Source: Pseudomonadota bacterium (GTDB lineage Bacteria; Pseudomonadota; Gammaproteobacteria; UBA12402). Taken from it: 64,000 bases of DNA. The stretch spans positions 26,710 through 90,709 of the forward strand of contig JBBTCW010000006.1 in assembly GCA_038043025.1 (NCBI GenBank), given 5' to 3'. Shown here piece after piece: positions 15,899 through 51,020 of this stretch. The first letter of the stretch is position 1. Every line of letters starts with the position of its first letter. A program made the position numbers and the translations under genes. Under the pieces are notes generated by a model. That model was not told the DNA's origin. It did not search any database and worked only from the letters and a program-made list of their open reading frames with translations.

Positions 15899-15919
15899 CG
15901 ACTATAATTATTTGGATGA

Positions 15920-16663: not shown

Positions 16664-16709
16664 TATTAAAAATCTCTCAATCAATGGGGTTAGTAAAATG
16701 TGAATATTT

Positions 16710-16880: not shown

Positions 16881-17132
16881 ATTGCTTCACATTATATGCT
16901 GTTATTGGTTGCGCAAAAAGAAGTTTTTTGGAAAAGATGGTTAGGGATGCTTTGGTTATCGAGTCGGGCAAATTTTGCCCATTCGCTGATTTTCAAAAAA
17001 TATTGATATTGAAGGCGAAAACCATTTATTTCATCCTGGTTATCATGGATTTTTGTTGGAATCAGTTTATAATTTGGCGATATTTTAAAGAAGATTGATA
17101 AATGTTGGCAGAAATATCGAGGCAGTTTTTTT

Positions 17133-18476: not shown

Positions 18477-18503
18477 ATTATGTGAAAAAGGGGCTTGTTT
18501 TAT

Positions 18504-20059: not shown

Positions 20060-20084
20060 GAAATCTCCGCCGCTTGCGGCCGAG
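20051..20084. repeat. 34-bp dispersed hairpin repeat, copy 1 (TTAAATTGAGAAATCTCCGCCGCTTGCGGCCGAG)
   Basis: Near-identical copy at 50987-51020. Contains the imperfect hairpin CTCCGCCGC-ttg-CGGCcGAG. Begins at the stop codon of the upstream gene. Confidence 0.6.
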
Positions 20085-20195
20085 TTGTTGAAAAAATATA
20101 TCCAAGACCTAAGCTCGTAAATTTTACCGCTTTAAAATCGTGGGTTCCCGCTAGATGCTTGTCGGTGTTAATGGTTATTTGAGGGAGGGGAGTAA

Positions 20196-21884: not shown

Positions 21885-21909
21885 AGCCAGGTTATTTTGA
21901 GGTAGAATA

Positions 21910-24731: not shown

Positions 24732-24910
24732 ATGAAAGATCTCTTCTGTAGTCGTATTAAAAGAGCCATTTTATATTCTTCCATCAAATAGTCAATTAAG
24801 GAGCGGTTCTGTTCGTTATTCAATTTTGTTTTTTTGTGATTGATATTTAGAACATTGTCTTGACAATGGCGCTATTTTTTTGTCCAATTTTATCTTTCTA
24901 AGGGTTTTTT

Positions 24911-26047: not shown

Positions 26048-26103
26048 GATTTTTTAAAGAGAGAAATTTTCATTGCGTGTGGTTGAGTTGTTGAAAAATT
26101 AAT

Positions 26104-28286: not shown

Positions 28287-28290
28287 GTCG

Positions 28291-29496: not shown

Positions 29497-29514
29497 GATA
29501 GAGGGTTATATAAA

Positions 29515-31227
29515 TTGAATATACTGTTTATTTTTCCGCTTAATGAGCCATATAATAGCATAGTAAATGCGACTCAAACGCCGTGGAAATCCAAATTAAG
29601 CGCATATAAAAACATAAAAAAACTAGATTGCGCCTATCCAACCGGATTATTGTCTATTGCGGCGTATGTTAAAAAAAGTATTCCGGATGTTAATATAAAG
29701 ATTTTAGACATTAATGCGGTGATGGTTCGTGTCGCACAGAGAAAAAATGAGTGCTCGGAGAGCTTTGACGAATATACACGTGAAGATTTGTTAAAAGAAG
29801 CTTTATCTAATCTTGATGGCTTTGCTCCAGATATTATCGGGATTTCTTTGTTGTTTTGTAGTAATTATCGGGATTTGGGCGCGCTGGCATTTTTTTTGCG
29901 AAAAGCATATCAAGAAAGTTTGATTGTTTGTGGTGGGCACCTAGCCTCGGCGAGCTATGATCGTATATATGAGGATGATTTTGAAATTGATGCAATTGTA
30001 TTTGGTGAGGGTGAGCGGCCGTTGCTTGAACTGACACAAGCCAGGCTAGAGGAGAAGCAAGTACAATATTTAGAGGAAAGCCCCTCATGGGTGACAAAAG
30101 AAAAAGCGCAGTCGAAATCGAAGTTTATTCCTGAGAATAAAGTGATTGTTGATTTGGATGAGATTCCTCCTTTTGATTTAAGTATGTTGATATTTTCTGA
30201 TGTCTATTTTAATTCGACAAGATATTTTTTTGTCATTGACTCTCAATCCAATCACAATGAAATGTTTATATTTTCAACACGCGGGTGTCCTTATAAATGT
30301 GTATTTTGTGCGTCTCAAAATGTACACGGCCATAAAGTAAGATCTTATAGTGTAGATAGGATAAAACAAGATATTTTGTATTATCATGAAAAATATAATA
30401 TCGATAGATTTATTTTTTATGATGACCATTTTTTAATTTATAAAAAAAGAGCTATCGAGATATTAAATTTCATTTCACAAAAACATCTTATTGCCGAAGT
30501 TCCTACGCCAGCTTTTTTTTCGATTAATAAAGAAACCGCTGCAGCCATGCGGCAAGCGGGTATAAAAGAAGTGAACATTACGATTGAAAGCGGCAATAGT
30601 GATACGTTAAAAAATATTATACATAAACCGGGGGATTTAAAGAGGGCAGAGGAGGCAGTCGATTGTCTTCATCGAGAAGGCATTGTGGTTGTTTCGAATA
30701 TTTTGATTGGGTTGCCGGGCGAAACAGCGCAATCGATTGATAAGGGATTGGCATATTTAATGACAACCGAGATCGATTGGTTTCAATGTTTTGTTGTTGC
30801 GCCGCTTCCCGGGAGTGAATTATATAAAATCTGCGAAGAAAATGATTATTTGGTTAGGAATTATGATTTATCCACAATGGATTACAAAAAATGTTTAATT
30901 AAAACTAAGGATTTTGATCCAACATATATTGAAAACAAAGCATATGAGATGAATTTAATCCTAAACTTTGTCAATAATTACAATATGCGACAAGGAAAAT
31001 ATGATTTGGCATTGCGACTTTTTGAAAGAGTGATTAATACTGTAATAGATACACATGCCTTTGCATATTATTATGCGGCCATATGTTGTAAACAATTAAG
31101 TTTAGACGATAAATATCTTGTGTATAAAAGGAAATATGAGGAAATGATTGAAAGATTTATATTTTGGAACGCTTATGCTGACAAGTTTAAATTAAAACAA
31201 TTAAGTTCTATTGATGTTTTGATGTGA
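29515..31227 (+). CDS. Cobalamin-binding (class B) radical SAM protein
   Basis: N-terminal B12-binding-like domain followed by STRGCPYKCVFCAS (CX3CX2C... wait: CPYKCVFC). 570 aa. Confidence 0.65.
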   Translation: MNILFIFPLNEPYNSIVNATQTPWKSKLSAYKNIKKLDCAYPTGLLSIAAYVKKSIPDVNIKILDINAVMVRVAQRKNECSESFDEYTREDLLKEALSNLDGFAPDIIGISLLFCSNYRDLGALAFFLRKAYQESLIVCGGHLASASYDRIYEDDFEIDAIVFGEGERPLLELTQARLEEKQVQYLEESPSWVTKEKAQSKSKFIPENKVIVDLDEIPPFDLSMLIFSDVYFNSTRYFFVIDSQSNHNEMFIFSTRGCPYKCVFCASQNVHGHKVRSYSVDRIKQDILYYHEKYNIDRFIFYDDHFLIYKKRAIEILNFISQKHLIAEVPTPAFFSINKETAAAMRQAGIKEVNITIESGNSDTLKNIIHKPGDLKRAEEAVDCLHREGIVVVSNILIGLPGETAQSIDKGLAYLMTTEIDWFQCFVVAPLPGSELYKICEENDYLVRNYDLSTMDYKKCLIKTKDFDPTYIENKAYEMNLILNFVNNYNMRQGKYDLALRLFERVINTVIDTHAFAYYYAAICCKQLSLDDKYLVYKRKYEEMIERFIFWNAYADKFKLKQLSSIDVLM

Positions 31228-31269
31228 AAAGTAATTTAGTTTTTAAAAATTTATAATTAGGAGGGAATC

Positions 31270-32820
31270 ATGCGAATATTGTTTATTAGGAATTCTTGTA
31301 CGCTCATGTCGCATTCTCAGCTAGGCTACGGTATGGGCATCGTGGCGACGATAGCGCATGCGGCCGGACATGAGGTAAAGGCAATAGACAATAATACATT
31401 ATACAAATTTTATAAGAACAAAGATTTTTTTAAGATAATAAAATCATATAAACCAGATATTATTGCCTATGGGCTAACATTGCATAATGCTTATGAGACC
31501 TATCAACAAATTTCAAAACTTAAAATTAAGTTTAAAAATATAACCATTATTGCTGGTGGGATACATATGAGGCATTGTTTTGACGAGGCTTTGCGTCATG
31601 GTGTTGATGTGGTGGTGAATAGGGAGGGGGAAAAAGTTATTGTGCCTCTCTTAGAGCATTTGGAACGGCACGGGGAGGATTATAAAAATGATCTCGATTT
31701 GATTGCTGGAGTTTCCTTTGTGCGCCAGGATGGGCGGTTTCATTTTTCCAAAGAATATCCTGCCGTAGAAAACTTAGATGATGTTCCTGTGGTAAATTAC
31801 GAGTTGTTTAATATTCAGGATTTTATAAAAACGGGGACAGAGGCGGGATTGTTTTATTTTACGGGACAGAGGGGCTGTCCATTTAAATGCACGTTTTGTT
31901 CTGATGCAGTTCATAATTTAGATAAAAGATGTTCTTCTGCGGACTGGTTGTTTAAGAACGTTCGTTATTTGCATGAGAAATATCAAGTGAGTTATTTGCT
32001 TATTGCAGATAATAATTTTACCTTTCCTCGGAAGCGGGCGGTTGAGTTTTGTAGAAAAATGATCGATTCTGGGTTAAGTAAAAAATTGACATTTTCTTGT
32101 CAAACAAACACACGATTTCCATTGGATGAGGAGCTTGTTTGTTTGATGAGGGAGGCAGGGTTCTGTAGAATTAATTTTGGGTTAGAGCGCCTAACGACTT
32201 ATTCATTGCAAAAGATAAACAAAATGCAACCTTTTCAAGGGGTGCACGATGCGTTGACGTTGGTTTCTAAGCATAATATAGACCCGTCAATTTTCATGAT
32301 GATTGGTTTTCCTTTTGAAACTGAAGAGTTATTAGAGCAAGAGAAAGAATTGTTCTTAGATCTCAAAAAATATACGCATCGATTGTTTCTTTCAGTATTA
32401 TGTCCTATGCCTGGCACTATGTATTATGATGGCTCGCCAAAAATTAAAGAGTGGTATTTAAATCGAGATGCATATTTAATGTTTCGGGCATATTTTACGA
32501 ACGTGTTAGATATGCATACATTTAACACTATTGAGAGAAACTTTTTTAACCTATCTAAGCCTGTTCAGCACGCGCTTAAGAATTATTATTTGCTATTTAA
32601 AAAGATAACCCACGGCTCTGTTTTTAATAAAAAAACGCCGCTATTGTCATTATGTTTAAACTTAGATTTTTTGGTTGCTAAAATATCTCAAGCTTGCTTT
32701 TATTTTTCCCCCTCGCTTGAGTTCTTTATTTTCAATCATATAAAATCCTTGAGATATTATGCGGGTAATTATTTTCTTTCCGGCTATATGTTAAAAAAGA
32801 ATCTGGTAGCTGACGAATAA
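31270..32820 (+). CDS. Cobalamin-binding (class B) radical SAM protein
   Basis: GQRGCPFKCTFCSD radical SAM motif after an N-terminal B12-binding-like domain. Paralogous in layout to the upstream gene. Confidence 0.65.
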   Translation: MRILFIRNSCTLMSHSQLGYGMGIVATIAHAAGHEVKAIDNNTLYKFYKNKDFFKIIKSYKPDIIAYGLTLHNAYETYQQISKLKIKFKNITIIAGGIHMRHCFDEALRHGVDVVVNREGEKVIVPLLEHLERHGEDYKNDLDLIAGVSFVRQDGRFHFSKEYPAVENLDDVPVVNYELFNIQDFIKTGTEAGLFYFTGQRGCPFKCTFCSDAVHNLDKRCSSADWLFKNVRYLHEKYQVSYLLIADNNFTFPRKRAVEFCRKMIDSGLSKKLTFSCQTNTRFPLDEELVCLMREAGFCRINFGLERLTTYSLQKINKMQPFQGVHDALTLVSKHNIDPSIFMMIGFPFETEELLEQEKELFLDLKKYTHRLFLSVLCPMPGTMYYDGSPKIKEWYLNRDAYLMFRAYFTNVLDMHTFNTIERNFFNLSKPVQHALKNYYLLFKKITHGSVFNKKTPLLSLCLNLDFLVAKISQACFYFSPSLEFFIFNHIKSLRYYAGNYFLSGYMLKKNLVADE

Positions 32821-32830
32821 CGGAGCGGGT

Positions 32831-33772
32831 ATGTCAAAAAAATTAATTAGCATTATGAGTAATTGTTATAACGAAGAAGAAAATGTTGATGAATTCTATC
32901 AGCAAATTAAAGAAATCATGATGTCCTATCAAGATAAATATGAGTATGATCATCTTTTTATGGATAATTCTTCAACGGATGGAACGGTAAAAAAAATTAA
33001 AGCTATTATTGAAAAAGATAAACATGTGCGACTCATCGTAAATACACGAAATTTTGGACAGATCCGTTCCCCTTATTATGGGATATTGCAAGTAAAGGGA
33101 GATGCTGTTGTGAGCTTGGCAACCGACTTTCAAGATCCTCCGTATTTGATTAGGGAATTTATAGCGAAGTGGGAAGAGGGATATAAAAATGTTATTGGGG
33201 TGAAACATAAAAGCAAAGAAAATAAAATAATGTTTTTTATTAGAAAGTTTTTCTATCGCTTGATAGCGAAAATATCCGAAGTAGATCTGGTTGAAAACTT
33301 TACTGGTTTTGGTCTTTATGACAAACAGTTTATTGATGTTTTACGCGGTCTTGATGATCCTTATCCTTATTTTCGTGGATTGATTGCTGAATTAGGGTTT
33401 AGTCGTGCTGAAATATCATATGCTCAGCCGAAACGAGAGAGAGGGACATCGACTAATAATTGGTATAGTTTATATGATCTTGCTATGCTGGGTTTTGTGA
33501 ATCATTCGAAGTTGCCTCTGCGTTTGTCGAGTTTTTTAGGATTTTTTGTATCATTTGTTTGTGTTGTTATTGCAATAGTTTATTTTATTTATAAGCTGCT
33601 TTTCTGGTCTTCTATTCAGATGGGTATTGCACCACTTATTATTGGTATGTTTTTCTTTGGTGGCGTGCAATTATTTTTTCTTGGTATTATTGGTGAATAT
33701 GTGGGGGCAATATTTACGCAGGTAAAAAATCGTCCGTTGGTTATTGAAAGGGAGCGGGTTAATTTTGATTAA
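32831..33772 (+). CDS. Polyprenyl-phosphate glycosyltransferase (GT2, GtrB/ArnC/DPM1-like) with C-terminal TM helices
   Basis: ISIMSNCYNEEENV...DNSSTDGT GT2 signature. Two C-terminal hydrophobic helices, typical of GtrB-like enzymes. Confidence 0.65.
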   Translation: MSKKLISIMSNCYNEEENVDEFYQQIKEIMMSYQDKYEYDHLFMDNSSTDGTVKKIKAIIEKDKHVRLIVNTRNFGQIRSPYYGILQVKGDAVVSLATDFQDPPYLIREFIAKWEEGYKNVIGVKHKSKENKIMFFIRKFFYRLIAKISEVDLVENFTGFGLYDKQFIDVLRGLDDPYPYFRGLIAELGFSRAEISYAQPKRERGTSTNNWYSLYDLAMLGFVNHSKLPLRLSSFLGFFVSFVCVVIAIVYFIYKLLFWSSIQMGIAPLIIGMFFFGGVQLFFLGIIGEYVGAIFTQVKNRPLVIERERVNFD

Positions 33773-34250
33773 TACAATAAAAAAACATATTTTTAACGAA
33801 CGATTTTCTAAATTCTTTTTAATCGGCATTTGGAACGCGGCATTTGGTGTCGGTGTTTTTTCCTTATTATATTATTGGTTTCATCAATATGTTAATTATA
33901 TGATTTTAGTGATCATCACTAATATTTTAGCCATTACTAATGCATATATCTGTTATAAGTTAGTTGTTTTTAAGACGAAGGGCAACTATGTTAAGGAGTA
34001 TTTAAGGTTTTATATCGTGTACGGTTTTGCATTTGCTGTGAGTTTATTGCTTTTCCCGCTTTTTATGGAAGTGGTCTTTCCTTTTTTGGCAGCGCATATG
34101 CCAAATTATTATGGTATCTTTAATTACAAGGCTTATTTGTCGCAACTTGTCATTACTAGTATCACCATGTTTGTCAGTTATTTTGGGCATCTTAAGGTTT
34201 CTTTTCGTGAGGAAGCCTCTTCAGAGGTGTTGCCCGATGGAGAAGGTTGA
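33744..34250 (+). CDS. GtrA-family small membrane protein
   Basis: 168 aa with about 4 TM helices (FLIGIWNAAFGVGVF...). Positioned after a GtrB-like gene. Confidence 0.55.
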   Translation: MKGSGLILINTIKKHIFNERFSKFFLIGIWNAAFGVGVFSLLYYWFHQYVNYMILVIITNILAITNAYICYKLVVFKTKGNYVKEYLRFYIVYGFAFAVSLLLFPLFMEVVFPFLAAHMPNYYGIFNYKAYLSQLVITSITMFVSYFGHLKVSFREEASSEVLPDGEG

Positions 34251-36055
34251 AAGTTATGATTAAACTATCGGATTATGTTGCAAAATTTATTGTAGATAAA
34301 AAAATAAAAAATTTGTTTTTATTGCCGGGTGGCGGATGTATGCATTTAGTTGATTCATTTGGTTGTCGTTCGGAGATTAAAAAGATTTGTTGTCTTCACG
34401 AGCAGGCGGCAGTCATCGCGGCAGATGCATGTAGTCAATACACCAATGATTTTGGCGTTGCGCTGGTGACAACAGGCCCGGGCGCGACAAATGCGATTAC
34501 AGGTGTTGCAGGGGCTTGGATCGATTCGGTTCCGATGATGGTGATTTCAGGCCAAGTGAAACGGCAAGACATGATGGGTCAGAGCAGATTGCGACAAAAG
34601 GGCGTTCAAGAAGTCGATATTATTACGATGGTGAAATCAATTACTAAATATGCTGTGACCGTGATGGATCCACAGCGCATTCGATATCATTTAGAAAAAG
34701 CCTATTGTTTAGCGCGCACGGGTTGTTCGGGTCCTGTTTGGATTGATATTCCATTGGATGTGCAGGGTGCAATGATCGAGGAGGATGCGTTAGAGCAGTT
34801 TATTCCTGCGCAAATCACTCGGCCGGATTTATCAGATCAAATAGATCATGTAGTCGATTTATTAAATCAGGCTAAACGACCGGTTCTTTTGGTTGGGAAT
34901 GGTGTGCGTTTGTCACATGGCATGTCAGAATTTTATGAATTAATTGACGCATTGAACATTCCTGTGTTAACCACTTGGAAATCAATCGATTTTTTATCGG
35001 AAGACCACCCGTTATTTTTTGGTCGCCCCGGGTCGATTGGACAACGTTATGCGAATTTGATTCAGCAAAATAGTGATTTATTCATAACCATTGGTGCGCG
35101 TCTTGATTTGGCGCAGATTGGTTATAATTATGGATGGGTCGCGCGTGAAGCGAGAAAAGTAGTGGTCGATGTTGATCAAGCGCAAATTGATAAAATGAGT
35201 GACATGCATATTGATGTGAGTGTTTGCGCGGACGCAAAGAATTTTATTAATCATCTGCTGGTAAAACAAAATGTAATCAATCGGTCGGATAGAAAAAAAT
35301 GGTTTGATCAATGCAAGATATGGAAGCAAAAATATCCCGTCATATTGTCAGCTTATTATGATGAGAAAAATTATGTTAATACCTATGTGTTGGTTGATAT
35401 CTTATCTGAACTATTGACAGAAGATGATGTGTTGGTGCCCGGAAGTTCAGGGAGTTGTAGTGAAATATTATCACAAGCATTTAAGGTGAAAAAAGGACAG
35501 CGAATTTTTAATAATCCGGGTTTAGGATCAATGGGATATGGATTGCCGGCGAGCATGGGTGCATGTGTTGCGAGCGGTAAGCGGACGATTACCGTGATTG
35601 GAGATGGTGGTTTGCAGCATAATATTCAAGAGTTGGAGACGATCCATCGATTGCAATTGCCGTTGAAAATATTTATTTTAAATAATAATGGTTATGCGTC
35701 GATTCGAAATATGCAGCGCAATTATTTTGATAAAAATTATATGTGCTGTGATCCATCGTCTGGCTTAACGGTGCCAAATACTTGTGATGTTGCATCGGCG
35801 TATAAAATCGCAACAACCCGAATTTATAATCATGAAAACATGAAAGAAAAAATAATGGCGGTTTTGCAAAGCAAGGGACCGATGATATGCGATGTGATGG
35901 TGAATCCTGATTTAATTACAGCGCCGCGTTTGTCTTCTGAAGTTAATAAAGATGGAAAAATCACATCGAAGCCGCTCGAAGATTTATGGCCATTTTTGGA
36001 TCGAGATGAATTTTTAGCGAATATGTTGGTGCCGGTGCTTGAGGCAAGTGAATGA
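34247..36055 (+). CDS. Thiamine-diphosphate-dependent enzyme of the acetolactate synthase/YerE-like family
   Basis: 602 aa. ThDP motif GDGGLQHNIQELETI...NNNGY. N-terminal TPP_enzyme_N-like TTGPGATNAITG. Confidence 0.7.
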   Translation: MKVMIKLSDYVAKFIVDKKIKNLFLLPGGGCMHLVDSFGCRSEIKKICCLHEQAAVIAADACSQYTNDFGVALVTTGPGATNAITGVAGAWIDSVPMMVISGQVKRQDMMGQSRLRQKGVQEVDIITMVKSITKYAVTVMDPQRIRYHLEKAYCLARTGCSGPVWIDIPLDVQGAMIEEDALEQFIPAQITRPDLSDQIDHVVDLLNQAKRPVLLVGNGVRLSHGMSEFYELIDALNIPVLTTWKSIDFLSEDHPLFFGRPGSIGQRYANLIQQNSDLFITIGARLDLAQIGYNYGWVAREARKVVVDVDQAQIDKMSDMHIDVSVCADAKNFINHLLVKQNVINRSDRKKWFDQCKIWKQKYPVILSAYYDEKNYVNTYVLVDILSELLTEDDVLVPGSSGSCSEILSQAFKVKKGQRIFNNPGLGSMGYGLPASMGACVASGKRTITVIGDGGLQHNIQELETIHRLQLPLKIFILNNNGYASIRNMQRNYFDKNYMCCDPSSGLTVPNTCDVASAYKIATTRIYNHENMKEKIMAVLQSKGPMICDVMVNPDLITAPRLSSEVNKDGKITSKPLEDLWPFLDRDEFLANMLVPVLEASE

Positions 36056-36927
36056 AGATATTGATTACAGGGGGCGCTGGTTTTATTGCAAAAAGTTTGT
36101 TTGATGAGCTTAATCAATTGTACGATGTAATTCTTTGTTCTCGAACAGATCTTGATTTGCTGGAGCCACAAGCCGTTTTTGAATATATTAAACGCTTTCA
36201 GTTTGATGTTGTTATTCATGCGGCGACTTATGATGCCGCGCCAACCTGTTCGATAAAAAATCCAAGCAAAGTATTAGAAAATAATTTGAAAATGTTTTTT
36301 AATATTGTGCGTTGTCAGAATTATTTTGGGAGATTAATTTATTTTGGCTCAGGAGCTGAATATGATCGTAATTATTGGGTGCCTAAAATGAAGGAAAGTT
36401 ATTTCGATCGACATATCCCGACTGATCAATATGGGTTTTCAAAATATATTATGACTAAATATATGCAGCACAGTAAAAATATTTATAATCTCAGGTTGTT
36501 TGGTGTGTTTGGGAAATACGATGATTGGCGCTATCGTTTTATTCCCAATGCTTGTTGCAGAGCTTTATTGGGTCGGCCTATTGTGATCCGTCAAAATAAG
36601 ATGTTTGATTTTATGTATATTGATGATTTAGTGGAAATAGTAAAATGGATTATATTGGCTCAGCCAATAGAAAATATATATAATGTTTGTTCAGGTCGGG
36701 CGCTTGAACTAAAGGCAATAGCCAAAACAATTGTAGAGGTGTCTGGGAAGCAGTCAGAAATCATTTGTTTGGAGTCGCAATTAGCCAGCGAATATAGTGG
36801 AGATAACGCTTTGCTTTTAAGTGAGCTAAAGGATTTTAGATTTTATGGGATAGAACAGGCCATTCAGAATTTGTATGATTGGTATGCAAGTAATGTATCT
36901 TTAATTTGTGAGGATCAATTGTGTTAA
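36052..36927 (+). CDS. NAD-dependent epimerase/dehydratase/reductase (SDR family)
   Basis: ITGGAGFIAKSL Rossmann motif. 291 aa. YxxxK-like YIMTK. Confidence 0.55.
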   Translation: MKILITGGAGFIAKSLFDELNQLYDVILCSRTDLDLLEPQAVFEYIKRFQFDVVIHAATYDAAPTCSIKNPSKVLENNLKMFFNIVRCQNYFGRLIYFGSGAEYDRNYWVPKMKESYFDRHIPTDQYGFSKYIMTKYMQHSKNIYNLRLFGVFGKYDDWRYRFIPNACCRALLGRPIVIRQNKMFDFMYIDDLVEIVKWIILAQPIENIYNVCSGRALELKAIAKTIVEVSGKQSEIICLESQLASEYSGDNALLLSELKDFRFYGIEQAIQNLYDWYASNVSLICEDQLC

Positions 36928-37439
36928 ATAATATTACGATACATGATGCCATTGCGTTTTTGGAACATCAAGTTGTGAATTCGTCCAAAGGGTTGCCGCA
37001 GGAATTATTTTTCTTTGTGACTCGAATGACGCCTATGGTAAATGTTGATTTGTTGGTGAGAGATGAAACAGGGCGAATTTTATTGGCGTGGCGCGATGAC
37101 CAATTTGCTGGAGCAGGTTGGCATGTTCCCGGAGGCATTATTCGGTTTAAAGAAACGATGATGACGCGTTTGTTAAAGATAGCTGACACTGAAATTGGTG
37201 CTGTTGTTGAACTAGATGCAGCGCCCATTGCCATTAATGAAGTTATTTGTGAACATGACACGCGAGGACATTTTATTTCTGTTTTATATCGAGGATATCT
37301 ATCGAGTAAATTTGAACCTAAAAATATGGGTTTGAAAGATACGGATCCTGGTTATCTGGCGTGGCATTCAGTATGTCCTAATAATCTTGTGACGGTGCAT
37401 GAGATGTATAGAATTTATTTGAACAATGAAAAATGTTAG
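36921..37439 (+). CDS. Nudix-hydrolase-like protein (degenerate Nudix box)
   Basis: GGIIRFKETMMTRLLKIADTEIG approximates the Gx5Ex7REUxEExGU Nudix box. Size about 170 aa, similar to GDP-sugar hydrolases. Confidence 0.4.
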   Translation: MLNNITIHDAIAFLEHQVVNSSKGLPQELFFFVTRMTPMVNVDLLVRDETGRILLAWRDDQFAGAGWHVPGGIIRFKETMMTRLLKIADTEIGAVVELDAAPIAINEVICEHDTRGHFISVLYRGYLSSKFEPKNMGLKDTDPGYLAWHSVCPNNLVTVHEMYRIYLNNEKC

Positions 37440-38733
37440 GGTTGTTATAATGCTTAAAAATGCATTGTCTTTTTTCATACCACATAAGCGATTCAATATT
37501 TTTTCGGGGACGAATACTTGGAAAGAGTGGAGGATGTTTTTTTGTTCTTATTTTACATTCGGGTCTTATCAGGATGAGTCTGTAATTGATGATTATGAAA
37601 AAGCGTTTGCAAAAGCATCGGATACTATTCATGCGATTAGTTTTGGCGCGGGTCGCATGGGGTTATATGCTATCTTAGAGGCGTTGGGGTTGCAGATGGG
37701 CGATGAAATTATTCTGCCAGCATTTACTTGCGTGGTCGTGCCCAATGCCATTATCTATCGAGGACTTAAGCCCATTTATGTTGATATTGATCCCGTTACG
37801 TTTAATATAGATGTTTCAAAAATAGAAAAGGCCATTACGTCTCGTACACGTGCGCTATATATTCAACATACGTTTGGTATTATTTGTGATATTGAGAAGG
37901 CGCGAGAAATTGCTGATCGATATAAATTATATCTTGTCGAGGATGCGTGCCATGCGTTGGGCGCTACTTATAAAGGAAAGAAAGCAGGCTCCTTGGCCGA
38001 TGTTGCCTATTTTAGTACGGATCATTCGAAAGTGATCAGTACGGTTTTGGGCGGTATGGTGACAACAAACAATGATGAGTGGGCAACAAAAATACGTGCT
38101 ATTCAGCAATCCTCGCCTTTTTTAACGCGAAAAATGGTTCACAGAGTTATATTAGCTTTTTTAACCGAGTATATGTTGCTTTCTCCTTATGGTGTTTGGT
38201 TGGGACGAAAGTTTTTCGCCGCGCTAGTAAAATTCAAAATGATTTTCTTTTATCATGATGAATTGAAAACAGAGAGGCCGACGGATTATCCTTATCCTTG
38301 TCGGTTGTCGTCGATTCAGGCAAAACTGGGCTTGTCTCAATTGGCTGATTTGGATCGCAATTTAGACTATCGTCGCAAAATAGCATTGTGGTTAGAATCA
38401 AGAATTAAGTGGTATGATGATTTACCTCAAGAATTTTTGCTACAACAAACGTGGATTCGTTATTCTTTTTTAGTGGCGGATAGAAAAAAATTTGAGGCGC
38501 TTTTTTGTCATCATTTTGATTTAGGTATTTGGTTTACGAGTATTTTGCATGGGCGAGTTGATGATTTGGATCAACTGGGTTATATTCAGGGATCATGCCC
38601 GGTGGCAGAATTTGTCGCGCAACATATTGTGAATTTTCCGACACATTTGCGTATTCCTTTAAAATTTTTACAAGATAATTGGTTAGAGTATGAGAAGGTG
38701 GTTTTAACTATGTTGGATAGGACGGTAGTATGA
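37426..38733 (+). CDS. DegT/DnrJ/EryC1-family PLP/PMP-dependent enzyme
   Basis: EDACHALGATYKGK, YFSTDHSKVIS (Lys) and HTFGIICD. Start uncertain; N-terminus atypical. Confidence 0.55.
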   Translation: MKNVRVVIMLKNALSFFIPHKRFNIFSGTNTWKEWRMFFCSYFTFGSYQDESVIDDYEKAFAKASDTIHAISFGAGRMGLYAILEALGLQMGDEIILPAFTCVVVPNAIIYRGLKPIYVDIDPVTFNIDVSKIEKAITSRTRALYIQHTFGIICDIEKAREIADRYKLYLVEDACHALGATYKGKKAGSLADVAYFSTDHSKVISTVLGGMVTTNNDEWATKIRAIQQSSPFLTRKMVHRVILAFLTEYMLLSPYGVWLGRKFFAALVKFKMIFFYHDELKTERPTDYPYPCRLSSIQAKLGLSQLADLDRNLDYRRKIALWLESRIKWYDDLPQEFLLQQTWIRYSFLVADRKKFEALFCHHFDLGIWFTSILHGRVDDLDQLGYIQGSCPVAEFVAQHIVNFPTHLRIPLKFLQDNWLEYEKVVLTMLDRTVV

Positions 38734-39878
38734 TTCGTTTGTCGAAATCTGTTGTGGGAGACCAGGAAGCGATCGCGCTTTCAAAGGTTGTAGCTCATGG
38801 TTATTTAGGGATGGGAGTAGAGGTTCAATTATTTGAGCAAAAATTGCAAGACTATCTGGATTGTTCGGACAGGAAAGTGGTTTGCGTTAATTCCGGGACT
38901 GCGGCATTACATTTAGCGTTACAAGCGTTGGGGCTGGGGGTGGGGGACGAAGTGTTAGTGCCCGCGATGACTTATATCGCTTCTTTTCAAGCGGTTTCTG
39001 CGACAGGTGCAACACCGGTTGCTTGTGATGTACGTTTAGAGAATGGGTTGTTGGATTTGAAAGATGCTCAGAAACGGTTAAGTCCAAAAACCAAAGCACT
39101 CATGTTTGTTCATTATGCGAGTTATTGTGGCGATCTGCAATCTGTTTATGATTTTGCAAAGCAATATAAATTAAGAGTAGTTGAAGATGCAGCACATGCG
39201 TTTGGCTCAATCTATCAAGGCAAAAAAATTGGTAGCTTTGGCGATGTGGTTTGTTTTAGTTTTGATGGGATTAAAAACATTACCTGCGGGGAGGGGGGTG
39301 CCATTGTAAGCGCGGATAGTGCAGTTATTAATAAAGTATTAGATGCACGATTGTTGGGTGTGCATAGAGAGAAGATTGAAAAACTTTCTTCAATGCAATG
39401 CAGTGGTGATTTTGATGTGATGGAGCAGGGATTTCGATATCACATGAGCAACTTAATGGCAGCGATTGGTATCGTGCAATTGAACCGGTTTGAAAAAGAA
39501 TTTAAACCGGCGAGAAGACAGCTGATAAGCTATTATTATGAGCGATTGAAAAATATCCCGGGGATTCAGTTATTGCAAATGGATTTAGATGATATTGTGC
39601 CACATATTATGCCGATGAGGGTTTTGAATGGTCAGCGTGATCGGTTAGGGATATATTTAAAGCAGCATGCAGTCGAGGTTGGAGTTCATTATAAGGCAGC
39701 TCATTTATTGTCCAAATACGGCCATGGTAGACCCCGGTTACCGGCTGCAGAACAATTGGCTGTCGAATTATTGACCTTGCCATTACATCCAGAGCTGAGC
39801 AAGCGGGATATTGATTATATTGTCGATTTAGTGCAGATTTTGTTGTGTGAAAAATCATGTGTTATGAGTGAAAATTGA
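38730..39878 (+). CDS. DegT/DnrJ/EryC1-family sugar aminotransferase
   Basis: SFDGIKNITCGEGGAIV (PLP lysine), EDAAHAFGS and NSGTAALHLAL. Confidence 0.7.
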   Translation: MIRLSKSVVGDQEAIALSKVVAHGYLGMGVEVQLFEQKLQDYLDCSDRKVVCVNSGTAALHLALQALGLGVGDEVLVPAMTYIASFQAVSATGATPVACDVRLENGLLDLKDAQKRLSPKTKALMFVHYASYCGDLQSVYDFAKQYKLRVVEDAAHAFGSIYQGKKIGSFGDVVCFSFDGIKNITCGEGGAIVSADSAVINKVLDARLLGVHREKIEKLSSMQCSGDFDVMEQGFRYHMSNLMAAIGIVQLNRFEKEFKPARRQLISYYYERLKNIPGIQLLQMDLDDIVPHIMPMRVLNGQRDRLGIYLKQHAVEVGVHYKAAHLLSKYGHGRPRLPAAEQLAVELLTLPLHPELSKRDIDYIVDLVQILLCEKSCVMSEN

Positions 39879-39932
39879 CGATGATAGGTTTTTATGGCAT
39901 AGTGGAAACCTTTGAAAAATAGTCATCATTTT

Positions 39933-40049
39933 ATGTTCAATGGCATCTATCAAAATCGTCGCGTGTTGATTACGGGGCATACTGGCTTTAAAGGTAGTTG
40001 GCTCGCGCAATGGTTATTGGATTTAGGCGCTGAATGGGATAAATCATGA
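39933..40049 (+). pseudogene. Remnant of a second CDP-glucose 4,6-dehydratase gene (38-codon N-terminal fragment, then stop)
   Basis: Translates as MFNGIYQNRRVLITGHTGFKGSWLAQWLLDLGAEWDKS*, closely paralleling the N-terminus of the intact rfbG at 18504 (MFNNVYKNRRVFVTGHTGFKGSWLTQWLLNLGAD). Ends at the start of the next GT2 gene. Confidence 0.7.
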
Positions 40050-40969
40050 AGGCTACACCCTCCGTCAGTGTTGTGATGAATTGTTACAATAGCGATCGCT
40101 ATTTAAAAGAAGCGATTGATTCAGTTTATGCGCAAACTTTTTTGGATTGGGAAATTATCTTTTGGGATAATGCGTCAACAGATCATAGCGCAGAGATCGC
40201 AAAATCTTATGATGATAAGTTACTGTATTTTTTAGGGGATCAACATGTTTCGCTCGGAGCGGCTAGAAATTTAGCGTTGAAGCAATGTCATGGAAAATAT
40301 ATTGCTTTTTTGGACTGCGATGATTTATGGTTGCCAACGAAATTAGAGAAACAAGTTGCGTTGTTAGAGCAAAATCCATCATTAGGAATGGTTTATTCGG
40401 ACTCGTATTTTTTTAATGAACGAGGAAATATTCGATGCTTATACCACGACAAAAAAACGCTTTGTGGAAATGTTTTTAAAGAATTGTTTGCCAATTATTT
40501 TTTGGATATTGAAACAGTTATTATTGTGCGATCAATTTTGGATAAATTGCCAGAGTGGTTTGATCCACGCTTACATGTCATGGAAGACGCTGATTTGTTT
40601 TTGAGAATTGCTTATGATTATCCCATTGACTGTGTGAATGAGCCGCTATCGAGATGGCGCGTGCATAAAAACAGTGATACATTTAGGCGGCATGAATTGT
40701 TTGCTAAGGAAAGCAGTCTGATTTTAGATAAATTAATGGCAGTAGATGAGAATTTTAAAGATCAATTTGGCGAAGAAATAAAATCATATCGTCGACATAT
40801 TATATGGTTAGAGGCCTTATCTCTCATACGAGCAGGTCAGTCAAGGCAGGGTCGTTTGCTATTGAGACCCTATTTGCTTAAGAGTAAGTCTTTTTTTCTT
40901 CTATATTGCTTAAGTTTTCTAGGGCAAAAATTATTCTGTTATTTATGGAATAAACGAGTGGGTTTTTAG
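40046..40969 (+). CDS. Glycosyltransferase family 2
   Basis: VSVVMNCYNSDRYL and FLDCDD (DXD) motifs. Confidence 0.7.
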   Translation: MKATPSVSVVMNCYNSDRYLKEAIDSVYAQTFLDWEIIFWDNASTDHSAEIAKSYDDKLLYFLGDQHVSLGAARNLALKQCHGKYIAFLDCDDLWLPTKLEKQVALLEQNPSLGMVYSDSYFFNERGNIRCLYHDKKTLCGNVFKELFANYFLDIETVIIVRSILDKLPEWFDPRLHVMEDADLFLRIAYDYPIDCVNEPLSRWRVHKNSDTFRRHELFAKESSLILDKLMAVDENFKDQFGEEIKSYRRHIIWLEALSLIRAGQSRQGRLLLRPYLLKSKSFFLLYCLSFLGQKLFCYLWNKRVGF

Positions 40970-41607
40970 AATATATAACCCAGGCCTAAACCTACAAATT
41001 TTACTGATTTAAAGTCATGGTTATTCGTGTAATATTGTGCGCTGATGTCGGTATAGAAATTGGGTGAAACATTCCAGTAAAGTCCTGCGCCTATGGTGGG
41101 GACGTAGGTTCCGCCATTTGATTGGCTATTGAGTAAGGTGTTGTTGATGGTGACAGCAACTTCTTTACGATACATATAGGCGATGCCTGGTTTGATAAAC
41201 AGGCCGAATTTTTTGGGCCATACAGGTAAAGAGACTTTGGCGACGAGATCAACAATTTGTTCTCTAAAGCCCGCATCTGTTTTTGAGTTGTTAATATTAT
41301 TAAACATGATCTTGGGTAGATACAGATAACCTGCTTCGATGGCGAGGTAAGGGTTAACATCATAGCCGGCGCCGAAGCGCGCGCTATATCCGGCACGGTC
41401 TGTGCTGGTGACGGATGTGAAGCCGGCTTTGCTCGTGAGCCAATTATTGGAGTAATTGGTGTATGCATAGCCGAGTTGTGCTACGACATGCCACGTTGGA
41501 TAGTTGGTTTGGTTGTCGTTGATTAAATCGTTTGTGGCAGCCAAAAGGACGCCGCTTGTCGTGGTAAGCAAAATGATTAATGTGACTTTTTTCAATAAAT
41601 AATGCAT
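40966..41607 (-). CDS. Outer-membrane beta-barrel protein (OmpA/Opa-like small porin family)
   Basis: Signal peptide MHYLLKKVTLIILLTTTSGVLLAA. Alternating amphipathic strands. C-terminal aromatic end ...GLGYIF. Confidence 0.55.
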   Translation of the reverse strand: MHYLLKKVTLIILLTTTSGVLLAATNDLINDNQTNYPTWHVVAQLGYAYTNYSNNWLTSKAGFTSVTSTDRAGYSARFGAGYDVNPYLAIEAGYLYLPKIMFNNINNSKTDAGFREQIVDLVAKVSLPVWPKKFGLFIKPGIAYMYRKEVAVTINNTLLNSQSNGGTYVPTIGAGLYWNVSPNFYTDISAQYYTNNHDFKSVKFVGLGLGYIF

Positions 41608-41807
41608 ATCGAGCCCCCCGTCTACTGTTTATTGTACCGAGTTGACATAAAAATGCTAGCCGAATATTGAGCCGAATATTGAGGGTTTCGAAGTCGGGTA
41701 ATATTTGCCCAGTCGATTGTGCAGGGGATAGATAATGTTTGCAGGGCTTTTCTTGGCATTTCTCTGTTGATACAGTAAAATGATGCTTTTTTCGCGAGCA
41801 AACTTCT

Positions 41808-42722
41808 ATGTTGATACCTGTCATATTGGCCGGTGGTATAGGCAAGCGTTTATGGCCTTTATCCACGCCGAAACGACCCAAGCAATTTCTGCCGCTGTTG
41901 AGTGACAAAAGCTTATTACAAGAAACGATGGCTCGTATTGCGCATTATCCAGAGATGTCTTTGCCAATGGTGATAGGCAGTTTGTCACATCGCGCTTTGT
42001 TGAACGAGCAATTAATAGGTGCTCAAGCGACTATAATTTTGGAACCATTTGGACGCAATACGGCGCCAGCGATTGCGATTGCTGCTTTAAGAGCGATGGA
42101 AAGTGGGCAAGATCCTATTTTATTTGTATTGCCTTCTGATCATGTGATTCAGAATCCAGATATATTTTATAAAGCGATAGCGATTGCTTGTGCGCACGCA
42201 GAAAAAAATAAATTAGTAACGTTTGGCATTGTGCCTCACGCACCAGAAATAGGTTACGGATATATTGAAGCGGGGGAGCGTTGTGATGATGCCTATGTCA
42301 TTAAACGATTTGTAGAAAAACCCCCGAAACAATTAGCCGAACAATATTTGGCGCAGGGCGGATATTATTGGAACAGTGGGATGTTTGTCTTTCGGGCGTC
42401 ATCGATTTTACAGGCGATTGAAACATATGCGCCAAACATTTACGCGGCTTGTCAGGAGACGTTAAAAAATAGTCGAAAGGATAAGAGGTATATTTATCTC
42501 AATGAAATACAATTTGCGCAATGCCCAAAAGAATCCATCGATTGTGCGGTCATGGAGAAAACAAAGGATGCAGTGGTGGTGCCGTTAGATGCCGGTTGGT
42601 CGGATGTGGGTTCGTGGCATGTGTTATGGTCGTTGATGCGTAAAAATCAACATGGCTACATGAAGCTTGCTACTCTATTTTTGAGAAATATCATGAGTCG
42701 ATTAAAAAAGGATCCTCAATGA
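41808..42722 (+). CDS. Mannose-1-phosphate guanylyltransferase-like nucleotidyltransferase (no C-terminal cupin/PMI domain)
   Basis: N-terminus MLIPVILAGGIGKRLWPLS is classic for ManC/GMP-type enzymes. 304 aa. Confidence 0.65.
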   Translation: MLIPVILAGGIGKRLWPLSTPKRPKQFLPLLSDKSLLQETMARIAHYPEMSLPMVIGSLSHRALLNEQLIGAQATIILEPFGRNTAPAIAIAALRAMESGQDPILFVLPSDHVIQNPDIFYKAIAIACAHAEKNKLVTFGIVPHAPEIGYGYIEAGERCDDAYVIKRFVEKPPKQLAEQYLAQGGYYWNSGMFVFRASSILQAIETYAPNIYAACQETLKNSRKDKRYIYLNEIQFAQCPKESIDCAVMEKTKDAVVVPLDAGWSDVGSWHVLWSLMRKNQHGYMKLATLFLRNIMSRLKKDPQ

Positions 42723-43504
42723 AAACGGTTATTTTATGTGGAGGGCAAGGCACGAGAATTCGCGGAGTTGTGGAGAATATTCCTAAGCCAATGATCCCGG
42801 TGGGTGCTTTCCCCATTCTTTGGCATATCATGAAATACTATGCGTGCTGGCGGCATAAAGAATTTGTGCTGTGTTTAGGATATCAGGCTGATGTAATTAA
42901 GGATTTTTTTCGTAATTACAAAGCACATATGTGTGATTATACTGTTTTTTTAGGGGATTCGAAGCGAGTTGAATATCATGGGAAGCATGATGAAGCGGAT
43001 TGGCAGGTGACGTTGGCAGAAACGGGGTTGAACGCAATGACGGGTGTTCGTATTAAGCGGATTAAAAAATATATCGCGGAGGACGAACATTTTATGCTGA
43101 CCTATGGGGATGGGGTGGGTGATGTTGATTTAGATAAGTTACTCGCGTTTCATTTATCTCACGGAAAAATTTTAACCATGACCGGCGTGCATCCCCCGGG
43201 TCGTTTTGGTGAGTTAATGAGTGACGCCAAGGGATTGGTCACTGAATTTAACGAAAAACCGCAATCCACGGGTGGTTGTATCAATGGCGGTTTCTTTGTC
43301 TGTCGTCGTGAAATATTTGATTATTTAAGTGACGATGAATCTTTAGTGTTTGAGCAAGAACCGATAAAAAAATTAGTCGCTGATCGGCAGATGATGTTGT
43401 ATGAACATGGTGGTTTTTGGCAGCCGATGGATACCTATCGCGAATATTCTTTACTAAATGGATTGTATGATGCGGGTAAAGCGCCTTGGGTCATTTGGAA
43501 ATGA
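42719..43504 (+). CDS. rfbF: Glucose-1-phosphate cytidylyltransferase
   Basis: MKTVILCGGQGTRIRGVVENIPKPMIPVG is diagnostic of RfbF/DdhA. 261 aa. Confidence 0.8.
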   Translation: MKTVILCGGQGTRIRGVVENIPKPMIPVGAFPILWHIMKYYACWRHKEFVLCLGYQADVIKDFFRNYKAHMCDYTVFLGDSKRVEYHGKHDEADWQVTLAETGLNAMTGVRIKRIKKYIAEDEHFMLTYGDGVGDVDLDKLLAFHLSHGKILTMTGVHPPGRFGELMSDAKGLVTEFNEKPQSTGGCINGGFFVCRREIFDYLSDDESLVFEQEPIKKLVADRQMMLYEHGGFWQPMDTYREYSLLNGLYDAGKAPWVIWK

Positions 43505-44484
43505 GCGCTATGGATGCATTATTGCAACATCGGCGTATTTTAATTACAGGAGGCTTGGGCTATGTGGGCGGCAGAGTAGCTCAGTATTTTTCTAAGAATC
43601 ATCCCGAGGTGAATTTGCGTTTAACCACGCATAGACGGGGCGTGCAAAAACCAGATTGGCTCGTCAAGGGCGACGTGGTCGAGATGGATATTGTTAATGA
43701 TGATGATATTGAACGAGCCTGTCAGGACGTCGATGTCATTTTGCATTTAGCTGCATTACATGAAGTCGATTGTGAGAAGGACGCCAAATATGCGGTTAGA
43801 GTGAATGAGCGCGGGACGTTTAAAATACTTGAAAGTGCCAAACGTTGTAAGGTTAGACGATTTATTTATTTTTCTACGGCGCATGTGTATGGAACTCCTT
43901 TGGTGGGTGAAATTAATGAATTAACCGTCACGCAACCGGTAGGGGTATATGCGGTTACGCATAAAGAGGCAGGAAGGCATGTGTTAGTGGCGGCTCAACG
44001 TAAAGAAATAGAAGGGATTGTTGTGCGGCTATCCAATGGGATTGGCGCGCCTGTTTTGGAATCCCGTGGGCGATGGACGCTTGTTGTGAATGATTTATGT
44101 CGACAGGCAGTAATGAATAAGCAATTAACATTGCGGTCAGCAGGATTGCAATATCGAGATTTTATCACATTAACGGATATCAGTAGAGCCGTGTCGCATT
44201 TAGTTGAGTTGCCGAGTGATCAGCTGCGCGATGGCCTTTTTAATTTAGGCGGTGAATGTTCGATGCAAATTAAAGAGATTGCAGAATTAATTCAAAACCG
44301 TTGCGAGATGCTTTTTGGATATAAACCGCCTTTGCGCGTGGGTGTTCAATCGTCGGTGGATAAAACAGACCGACTGACATATAACATTGATAAGTTAAAG
44401 TCGACGGGATTTAAGTTAACACAAAAAATTGATGATGCGATTGATGAAACGCTGTTGTTTTGTGACAAGCAATTGAAGAAGTAA
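43486..44484 (+). CDS. NAD-dependent NDP-sugar epimerase/reductase (SDR)
   Basis: ITGGLGYVGGRVAQYF Rossmann motif. 332 aa. Confidence 0.55.
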   Translation: MGHLEMSAMDALLQHRRILITGGLGYVGGRVAQYFSKNHPEVNLRLTTHRRGVQKPDWLVKGDVVEMDIVNDDDIERACQDVDVILHLAALHEVDCEKDAKYAVRVNERGTFKILESAKRCKVRRFIYFSTAHVYGTPLVGEINELTVTQPVGVYAVTHKEAGRHVLVAAQRKEIEGIVVRLSNGIGAPVLESRGRWTLVVNDLCRQAVMNKQLTLRSAGLQYRDFITLTDISRAVSHLVELPSDQLRDGLFNLGGECSMQIKEIAELIQNRCEMLFGYKPPLRVGVQSSVDKTDRLTYNIDKLKSTGFKLTQKIDDAIDETLLFCDKQLKK

Positions 44485-49452: not shown

Positions 49453-49531
49453 GCGAAAGTCGCTATTAATTGCCTGATTAAAGGTGGCTTTGCCTGGTGA
49501 ATTATCCCAAATAGATAGAGGCAGAAAGATA

Positions 49532-50950
49532 ATGAAACTAACAGAAATCGAAACTCTGGCAAAAAAAGGCGAGTCTGATGCTTTAGAATTTAAAAAATCT
49601 ACTGCGCAGCTGAAAAGTGCGGGTGAAACACTGTGTGCATTTTTGAATAATCATGGCGGGATAATTTTCATTGGCGTTAATGATCATGGTGCAATCATTG
49701 GGCAACAAGTAACAGAGCATACAAAACGAGAAATCGGTAGCATTTTAGCTAAAGTAGCTCCAGAACATAATGTCGATGTTCTATATGTTGATATTAATAA
49801 AACTAAACAGGTCATCGTGTTGCGAGCAACGCCTCACATAGATTTACAGCCATATACATTTGATAGCAAAGCGTATGTTCGCGTTGAATCAAGCACCTAT
49901 CCTATGTCTCGAGATCAATATCAAAGAATGAGTTTAAACTATATGCAACAGCACCGTAGCTGGGAGAATGGGATTATAAAAGATGCTTCAATAGAGGATT
50001 TAGATGCTGAAGAAATTATGAGGACAATAACTGAAGGAATCGCTAATAAAAGAATACCTGCTGATCAAGCGGCCAGCAGTCCTGAAAGGGTGTTAAAACG
50101 ACTTGGGCTGCTCAAGAATAACCAGATAACCAATGCGGCCATTGTATTATTTGCCAAAGAGCCAACCCAGCGGCTTCATCAATGCTCTATTCGTTTAGCC
50201 CGATTTAGAGGGTTAGATAAATCAGAATTTGTGGATAGCAAGGTAGTAGATGGCAATGCTTTTACTTTAATTAATGCTGCCATGTCTTTTGCTGATTTAT
50301 ACTTGCCCGTCAGCAGTAAGTTTGGCTCAGGAAAAATCGAAAGAATTGATGAGCCATTATTTCCGATAGATGCGTTAAGAGAGGTGTTTGCTAATGCGGT
50401 TGGCCATAGAGACTATGCTATGCATACCGCGACGCTCAGTTTTGCGATTTATGAAAATCGACTTGAAATTTGGTCGCCGGGTTTACCGCCCGATGGGGTG
50501 ACTTTCGAGAATATTAAAACCCTGCACGAATCCATACCCAGAAACCGACTGATCACAAAAGTACTTTATTATCGCAAACTTTTTGAGTCATGGGGAAGGG
50601 GAATTCAAAAAATTATAACCCTATGCACGGAAGCCGGCCATCCAGAGCCGGAATTTGTTGAAAGAACCGGTGGGGTATGTGTAATTTTAAAGTCAAAACA
50701 ATCGATAGGCGCGCCAATAATATATGATAAGCAAACAGAAGAAAGAATTAAATTAACTGATAGACAAAAAGAAATTTTATCTATTATTAAGGAAAAGCGT
50801 CAAGCGACATTGCCAGAAATAATTCAAGCTTTAACAGATAAAGCAGCCAAACGCACAGTGCAACGCGAATTAGCTAGACTTAAAGATTTTGGTCTGATTT
50901 CATTGAGGGGAGGAACAAAGGGATCTGTATGGGAAATAATTGCGCCATAA
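49532..50950 (+). CDS. AlbA_2 (Schlafen-like) DNA-binding domain + HATPase_c_4 + C-terminal wHTH protein (putative regulator/ATPase)
   Basis: N-terminus KKGESDALEFKKS...AFLNNHGGIIFIGVNDHG is typical of AlbA_2 'divergent AAA' proteins. C-terminal HTH-like segment. Start at MKLTEIE (RBS GAAAGA). Confidence 0.5.
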   Translation: MKLTEIETLAKKGESDALEFKKSTAQLKSAGETLCAFLNNHGGIIFIGVNDHGAIIGQQVTEHTKREIGSILAKVAPEHNVDVLYVDINKTKQVIVLRATPHIDLQPYTFDSKAYVRVESSTYPMSRDQYQRMSLNYMQQHRSWENGIIKDASIEDLDAEEIMRTITEGIANKRIPADQAASSPERVLKRLGLLKNNQITNAAIVLFAKEPTQRLHQCSIRLARFRGLDKSEFVDSKVVDGNAFTLINAAMSFADLYLPVSSKFGSGKIERIDEPLFPIDALREVFANAVGHRDYAMHTATLSFAIYENRLEIWSPGLPPDGVTFENIKTLHESIPRNRLITKVLYYRKLFESWGRGIQKIITLCTEAGHPEPEFVERTGGVCVILKSKQSIGAPIIYDKQTEERIKLTDRQKEILSIIKEKRQATLPEIIQALTDKAAKRTVQRELARLKDFGLISLRGGTKGSVWEIIAP

Positions 50951-50986: not shown

Positions 50987-51020
50987 TTAAATTGAGAAAT
51001 CTCCGCTGCTTGCGGCGGAG
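50987..51020. repeat. 34-bp dispersed hairpin repeat, copy 2 (TTAAATTGAGAAATCTCCGCTGCTTGCGGCGGAG)
   Basis: 32 of 34 positions match the copy at 20051-20084. Preceded by three copies of AATTGCGCCA (50938-50980). Confidence 0.6.

Follow-up and report, generated by a model that had tools for sequence, protein, structure and literature searches.

Between a sugar aminotransferase gene and a glycosyltransferase gene, the window (the whole stretch of 64,000 nucleotides of DNA that was analysed) holds an open reading frame (ORF) of 38 codons whose TGA stop overlaps the ATG of the glycosyltransferase gene (ATGA, 40046-40049). A NUDIX gene and two genes for DegT-family aminotransferases (435 and 382 aa) lie upstream of this ORF; downstream follow the family-2 glycosyltransferase gene (GT2), a minus-strand OmpA-like gene, a mannose-1-phosphate guanylyltransferase-like gene encoding the transferase domain only, and rfbF, and past rfbF come an SDR gene, a GT2-deacetylase fusion, a FemAB-like gene and a GT4 gene. 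The features on which our analysis draws are the following:

38730-39878, plus strand: DegT/DnrJ/EryC1-family sugar aminotransferase of 382 aa (henceforth DegT382; PF01041, E=8e-90), left anchor of the proposed ancestral cassette

39879-39932, plus strand: spacer of 54 nt from the DegT382 stop to the ATG of the fragment, tentatively a 3' remnant of rfbF

39933-40049, plus strand: ORF of 38 codons with an ATG start, translation MFNGIYQNRRVLITGHTGFKGSWLAQWLLDLGAEWDKS followed by the stop

39933-40034, plus strand: 5' remnant of a CDP-glucose 4,6-dehydratase gene (rfbG), codons 1-34, with the GHTGFKG NAD-binding motif

40035-40049, plus strand: last four codons (WDKS) and stop of a lost cupin gene (henceforth X), sequence TGGGATAAATCATGA

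40046-40969, plus strand: family-2 glycosyltransferase GT2 of 307 aa (PF00535, E=1e-30), right anchor of the proposed ancestral cassette

42719-43504, plus strand: rfbF, glucose-1-phosphate cytidylyltransferase, the only intact one in the window (TIGR02623, 305 bits, cut-off 300)

18443-37411, no strand: 19-kb block that is in the window and absent from its closest relative, delimited by a break in blastn synteny between L086 and the window

18504-19601, plus strand: intact resident rfbG, CDP-glucose 4,6-dehydratase (TIGR02622, 466 bits, cut-off 278)

19589-20059, plus strand: intact resident X, a sugar-isomerase/epimerase-like cupin of 156 aa, 51% identical to the X of locus L087

The original prediction, made from the letters of the DNA, had taken all 38 codons for the N-terminal fragment of a CDP-glucose 4,6-dehydratase gene, and two kinds of search agree on the identity of that gene. 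The ORF at 39933-40049 matches positions 1-30 of the 352 positions of the NCBIfam profile TIGR02622 (E=4.4e-13, 49.1 bits), and tblastn aligns it to the intact resident RfbG with 26/34 identities (E=1e-13) and to the RfbG of L087 with 24/34. At the nucleotide level 76 of 102 positions are identical to the resident rfbG (18504-19601), or 74.5%. The extent of the dehydratase part has to be corrected: homology to rfbG ends past codon 34 and the frame stops at residue 38, such that codons 1-34 (39933-40034) are dehydratase, but codons 35-38 and the stop come from the cupin gene X, as set out below. No additional rfbG-like sequence was found by tblastn near the fragment in any frame.

As a member of its family, the fragment is a typical RfbG/DdhB (TIGR02622) N-terminus of the extended short-chain dehydrogenase type over residues 1-34 (26-28/34 identity), with the glycine-rich NAD-binding motif GHTGFKGSW present and intact. 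Extended SDR dehydratases carry a catalytic Tyr-x3-Lys and the Asp/Glu dehydratase residues in their central domain. With homology ending at residue 34, the fragment lacks these central-domain residues; it differs from RfbG/DdhB in comprising about 9% of the protein, with neither the Tyr-x3-Lys nor the substrate-binding domain, and its 49.1 bits do not reach the curated TIGR02622 cut-off of 278, set for proteins of some 350 residues. The fragment cannot work as an enzyme.

The junction itself is real, since it recurs in the assemblies of four Hainich groundwater samples (ERZ1292621, ERR3858111, ERZ1292633 and ERZ1292635), which rules out an assembly chimera or artefact. In the NCBI record of this 'Pseudomonadota bacterium' MAG, a 45-codon, TTG-start version of the fragment is entered as the hypothetical protein AABY34_00800. 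This annotation, along with the intact ORF and its ATG start, would suit a functional small protein of 38 residues, an explanation to which we give almost no credence: the peptide amounts to half a Rossmann beta-alpha unit with no catalytic residues, its ATG has no Shine-Dalgarno (SD) sequence (see below), the only close relative lacks it, no recorded gene product is identical to the 38 aa, and other short RfbG-like ORFs in the databases lie mostly on short contigs. The 38-codon ORF had been expected to recur in related genomes if it were an independent small protein, and the closest relative does not have it. A protein search with the 45-aa version matched only other short ORFs, many from short contigs, and one of these (P0002, locus L005) sits amid fragmented gene calls in an unrelated organism. 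Four public short ORFs (P0010, P0006, P0017 and P0030), most of them from short contigs, correspond to the RfbG N-terminus; in P0010, RfbG homology is also lost directly past 'LGAE'.

We asked how the fragment relates to the intact rfbG of the same window, of which it had been called a decayed paralog, though not a recent duplicate. The last point holds. The differences between the two fall on codon positions 1, 2 and 3 in the ratio 7:1:18 (chi-square p=2e-4), and synonymous sites are saturated (pS=0.75, with pN=0.13). The divergence therefore accrued while both genes were functional, and a recent copy of the resident gene is ruled out. Paralogy is not supported: many unrelated RfbGs match the fragment as well as the resident one does (26/34 identities), with 14 of 120 RfbG homologues reaching at least 27/34. 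Nor does the surviving part look decayed, as it scores 58.3 bits against an RfbG profile on which functional N-termini score 56.7±2.2 (range 50.5-60.5). With no drift away from a functional score, the truncation is recent. No repeats flank the scar. We consider it highly probable that the fragment is a non-functional remnant of a dead gene, of an ordinary kind and no new element.

If a gene was truncated here, its intact counterpart should be visible in related loci. A metagenome scan with GT2 returned one close relative, locus L007, whose GT2 shares 92% amino acid identity with that of the window, and many distant loci. L007 is part of MGXQ01000012.1 (L086), a contig of the Rifle MAG 'Gammaproteobacteria bacterium RIFCSPHIGHO2_02_FULL_42_13'. 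In at least 15 of the distant loci, X and rfbG lie directly 5' of the GT2 homologue, often with homologues of DegT382 and rfbF alongside. The GT2 homologues of L074, L018, L010, L066, L045, L033, L047 and L023, which have an intact rfbG and an X of about 150 aa directly upstream, are 42-55% identical to the window GT2, and homologues of DegT382 with 50-62% identity adjoin rfbF, rfbG, X and GT2 in many loci. The closest non-trivial DegT382 homologue (62%) stands in the order DegT-rfbF-rfbG-X-GT2-deacetylase-FemAB, which is the order of the window minus the gap. An intact rfbG occupies the place between DegT/rfbF and X-GT2 in L087, L074, L018, L010, L066, L045 and others, and the interval from DegT to GT2 measures about 2.1-2.3 kb in intact cassettes versus 167 nt in the window. 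The intact rfbG thus sits exactly between the orthologous DegT and GT2 genes, in line with the deletion scar that had been predicted. We infer the ancestral state from cassettes of 42-62% protein identity; in the searched collections L007/L086 is the sole close relative, no intact cassette with near-identical flanks was found, and searching the genome collection with DegT382 gave no relatives.

The closest relative has lost the same genes and retains a different piece of them. Its DegT382 and GT2 genes, together with 54 nt at the start and 14 nt at the end of its spacer, are about 85-90% identical to the window at the nucleotide level, with a value of about 88% for the DegT-GT2 flanks; where the window has 103 nt of rfbG, the relative has about 80 unrelated nt and no piece of rfbG. 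We built a profile from the X genes of the related cassettes, and with that profile only, homology became apparent in one frame of the relative's spacer (E=4.8e-9), reading SIIINRAFLAHDLGEIDHLDQHTYQVPYAWDKS up to its stop and corresponding to about 33 C-terminal codons of X; NCBIfam gave no match to the ORF of this spacer or to its reverse frame. The whole DegT-GT2 spacer of the relative (L086 11147-11295, equal to L007 5856-6004) is one open frame of 48-50 codons that begins 2 nt past the DegT stop and ends at the GT2 ATGA, its last 33 codons being the X remnant. This remnant scores 17.3 bits, compared with 28.9±5.9 for real X C-termini (the lowest among them 17.4), and looks more decayed.

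The relative also reveals the origin of the last codons of the window's ORF. The sequence TGGGATAAATCATGA is identical in L007/L086, where it ends the 33-codon X remnant with QVPYAWDKS and the stop. The X proteins of other cassettes share a conserved end of the form PHDPxExE.L......IPYxW.., with IPYxW(E/K).. at the terminus, and the X stop in these cassettes abuts or overlaps the ATG of GT2, by the same ATGA in L074 and L023. Since the spacer of the relative matches the X profile and has the same end, the WDKS and stop of the window are the end of X and not of rfbG. An SD-like GGGAU belonging to GT2 lies within the 14 nt of X preserved unchanged in both lineages, and these last 14 nt, as the ribosome-binding site of GT2, are probably the sole part of the remnant still working. 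As the window and its relative keep different pieces of one rfbG-X pair, the pair was lost by different deletions in the two.

We then considered the 54-nt left flank, which is common to the window and its relative (40/48 nt identical to L007). HMMER comparisons of this flank alone with RfbF and X were uninformative, and it was next analysed with ungapped and frameshift-aware PSSMs. The residues FLWHSGN (39889-39909) fit the RfbF C-terminal consensus LWESGNAPWKVW, and the flank scores 15.9 bits against a PSSM of RfbF C-termini (p=0.003 against random window segments), in a register that puts the expected rfbF stop at the rfbG ATG. Read in another frame, the flank resembles the WYGFKG part of X, with p=0.007-0.02 only if an adjacent X remnant is imposed. 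Were the flank derived from X, the pieces would not be colinear and the history would be more complex: the flank would be an older X remnant and the 5' piece of rfbG would lie inside an X remnant, either because a cassette replacement left X'-rfbG-X-GT2, from which the relative then deleted the DNA between the X repeats, or because DNA repair copied in a patch of rfbG. This dead but non-colinear arrangement gains from the fact that the relative's whole spacer is one open frame aligned to X profile positions 109-150, to which the left 16 codons add 5.4 bits, a gain equalled by 4/200 shuffles and 20/3000 random window segments. Yet the X-likeness of the flank is not significant without the adjacency constraint (p=0.07-0.5), and the same DNA in its other frame fits the RfbF C-terminus better and in a register that ends at the rfbG ATG, colinear with the common DegT-rfbF-rfbG-X-GT2 order. 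The non-colinear history also requires more events, and we regard it as unlikely. The left flank is a probable rfbF stub on these profile scores, which favours the colinear reading DegT-rfbF'-rfbG'-X'-GT2.

We therefore propose that the ancestor carried the widespread cassette of a DegT aminotransferase, rfbF, rfbG, X (a small cupin) and GT2, in which the X stop would have abutted or overlapped the GT2 start. In this lineage, deletions would have removed rfbF, rfbG and X from a surface-polysaccharide gene cluster, and with them the synthesis and isomerisation of CDP-4-keto-6-deoxyglucose, leaving the probable 3' stub of rfbF (39879-39932), rfbG codons 1-34 (39933-40034) and the end of X (40035-40049). 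The deletion from rfbG to X would have fused codon 34 of rfbG to X at its fourth codon from the end, by chance in frame, so that the 38-codon ORF ends at the old X stop, atop the GT2 ATG. The closest relative would have lost the same genes through a different deletion that kept some 33 codons of X and no piece of rfbG. Loss in the window may have been tolerated because intact rfbF, rfbG and X are present elsewhere in the same cluster, and the branch-specific genes on both sides of the scar would have stayed functional. Taken as a whole, this colinear deletion history is one that we hold with considerable confidence: its demonstrated elements are that each piece has its homologue, that the cassette is intact elsewhere, that the relative has a different remnant and that the neighbours are under purifying selection, and the order and number of deletions, as well as redundancy as the reason for tolerance, are the parts that we reconstruct.

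An intact ORF ending on the start codon of the next gene also suggests regulation, and the fragment had been proposed to serve as a short leader or to couple translation into GT2 through the TGA/ATG overlap. We used the energy of the duplex with the anti-SD sequence as a computational proxy for initiation. This energy is +0.4 kcal/mol at the fragment ATG (39933), -3.3 at the alternative TTG (39912) and -4.0 at GT2, against a median of -4.8 for the genes of the window and a mean of -2.1 kcal/mol for random positions; the SD of the fragment ATG is weaker than that of 94% of the window's genes and weaker than at random positions. Of the two features expected of a coupled pair, the overlap of stop and start is thus present (ATGA, 40046-40049), but by this proxy the upstream ORF has no initiation signal of its own at ATG 39933. 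The region of the fragment has no Rfam match at E<=1, which together with a fold z-score of -1.56 rules out a structured RNA. Promoter-like sites in the spacer number 5, not clearly above the 2.8±1.6 of shuffled sequences, and a terminator-like site occurs solely on the minus strand, such that neither a promoter nor a terminator was accepted.

A co-opted short upstream ORF that delivers ribosomes to the GT2 start would explain why the deletion is in frame with the stop on the GT2 ATG, why the relative's unrelated ORF of 48-50 codons also runs from the DegT stop to the same ATGA, and why the fragment has not decayed. In-frame joining has a chance of one in three, recency accounts for the absence of decay equally well, the open frame of the relative that ends at the same ATGA is an in-frame X remnant as expected from ancestry, and the ATGA overlap was inherited from the X-GT2 junction of other cassettes. 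The peptide sequence is not common to the relative, and GT2 possesses an SD close to the median in strength, whereas the fragment ATG has none. We consider co-option improbable, and we give a similarly low rating to the notion that the deletions in both lineages were selected to keep a frame open from the DegT stop region into the ATGA. If the latter were true, a pseudogene remnant would have been co-opted as a coupling leader, and the rfbG stub of the window and the X stub of the relative would be relay ORFs coupling GT2 to the upstream operon. Compared with translationally coupled pairs that share an ATGA overlap, the stub is alike in that its stop overlaps the GT2 start, as it does for intact X and GT2 in L074 and L023; it differs in that no initiation signal can be detected for it, and GT2 is provided with one. 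The apparent coupling is therefore left over from the lost gene, with no demonstrated function, and the stub is likely silent or irrelevant, its non-expression being judged from these sequence signals.

We wished to determine what was lost with the deletions, as the scar had been taken to mark the removal of a second CDP-hexose branch. Over the whole window, the tblastn matches are to a single rfbF, a single rfbG and a single X plus the fragment, with no other close rfbF match. The resident X has as its closest solved relative PDB 3EJK, a 'dTDP sugar isomerase' (E=7e-27). Compared between window and relative, dN/dS is 0.11 for rfbF (42719-43504), and 0.14 for both DegT382 (90% amino acid identity) and GT2; across ten flanking genes it is 0.11-0.27, with no internal stops. 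The flanking genes are thus under purifying selection and, as judged from these substitution ratios, the aminotransferases and transferases of the branch are still in use. Contrary to the removal of a branch, only the shared early genes rfbF, rfbG and X were lost, and the branch-specific genes (the two DegT genes, GT2 and the genes downstream) are intact. The loss is one of redundant shared early steps and not of a whole branch. On the strength of their sequences, the resident rfbG and its companions can be predicted to supply the early steps in trans in the window genome. Neither rfbG nor X was found in the 21 kb of L086, and the protein database gave no close RfbG orthologue from the relative; redundancy therefore cannot explain the tolerated loss there.

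The prediction that the locus is mosaic was borne out: relative to its closest relative, the window has a 19-kb block (18443-37411) and two extra genes. The block opens with the intact rfbG-X pair and holds a true RfbH (21910-23238; NF011936, 722 bits). It also contains a minus-strand NeuB-cupin gene, genes for a C-methyltransferase, a radical-SAM/SPASM protein, two B12-binding radical-SAM proteins, two GT2 enzymes and a GtrA protein, an acetolactate-synthase-like TPP enzyme (34247-36055), an epimerase and a NUDIX protein. The gene content of the block suggests a pathway that makes a modified or branched 3,6-dideoxyhexose and may resemble yersiniose synthesis.

The extra genes lie farther downstream. 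One is the OmpA-like beta-barrel gene (40966-41607, minus strand) between GT2 and the guanylyltransferase-like gene, part of an insertion at about 40969-41689 and absent from the relative, which has a 165-nt spacer at that place. The other (49484-50950, plus strand) encodes 488 aa with precomputed AlbA_2 and HATPase_c_4 matches and no NCBIfam family; it stands between the GT4 gene and a UDP-GlcNAc 2-epimerase-like gene in the window and not in the relative. A GC-rich short hairpin, CTCCGCTGCTTGC(A/G)GCGGAG, is found with conserved flanks at about 51001-51020 of the window and about 12230-12266 of L086, lying 3' of GT2 in the relative and 3' of the window-only gene 49484-50950 in the window; it is possibly a palindromic repeat of small size or the end of a transcript. 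Between conserved adh_short and GT4 genes, window 14694-17110 and L086 2800-7350 carry different genes, the former a 395-aa ORF and a minus-strand 298-aa ORF without Pfam matches, the latter a 395-aa ORF, a B12 radical-SAM gene and a Methyltransf_21 gene. The cluster has another replacement point here.

The mannose-1-phosphate guanylyltransferase-like gene (41808-42722, plus strand) covers positions 1-286 of the 467 positions of TIGR01479, without the isomerase/cupin domain, and its stop overlaps the rfbF ATG. As the relative has the same 304 aa with a dN/dS of 0.22, it is probably a working transferase-only enzyme and not a second scar. The SDR gene (43486-44484, plus strand), which adjoins rfbF, was considered as a replacement dehydratase and dropped: its product reads by eye STAHVYG...YAVTHK, with STAHVYG where 4,6-dehydratases have an Asp-Glu pair, and the match to TIGR02622 is at E=9e-4. 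An epimerase or reductase acting on a CDP-sugar appears more likely from these residues.

These findings are of value mainly for annotation and for tracing how the locus evolved. AABY34_00800, the 45-codon 'hypothetical protein', should be marked as an rfbG pseudogene remnant, and from the three stubs and the relative one can read a dated series of events in which a conserved DegT-rfbF-rfbG-X-GT2 cassette lost its sugar-activation genes, copies of which are present elsewhere in the cluster. The finding raises no new question; it extends to an uncultured aquifer lineage a pattern known from the O-antigen clusters of enterobacteria.

Remnants at the junctions of O-antigen gene clusters are well documented, and the fragment adds one from an uncultured lineage. 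In Salmonella, serogroups B1 and D1 have distinct wzy remnants, produced by different serial deletions after a new wzy had been gained elsewhere (PMC3715488), and in E. coli 9 of 178 O-antigen serogroups have anomalies listed as gene remnants, which are taken as signs of recent events (PMC7685785). The fragment described here has the features of such a remnant: its counterpart is intact at the same position elsewhere, it is not conserved in the relative, and its neighbours are functional. As in those clusters, a truncated pathway gene lies between intact genes where differently related blocks meet, one ancestral gene set has left different pieces in related lineages through different deletions, and the original has been lost, with another functional copy elsewhere. 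The differences are that the host is an uncultured groundwater gammaproteobacterium, that genes of sugar-nucleotide synthesis (rfbF, rfbG and the cupin gene) were lost here instead of wzy, that the junction has no IS or H-repeat element, as judged from the ORF lists, and that what survives of rfbG is by chance part of an intact ORF.
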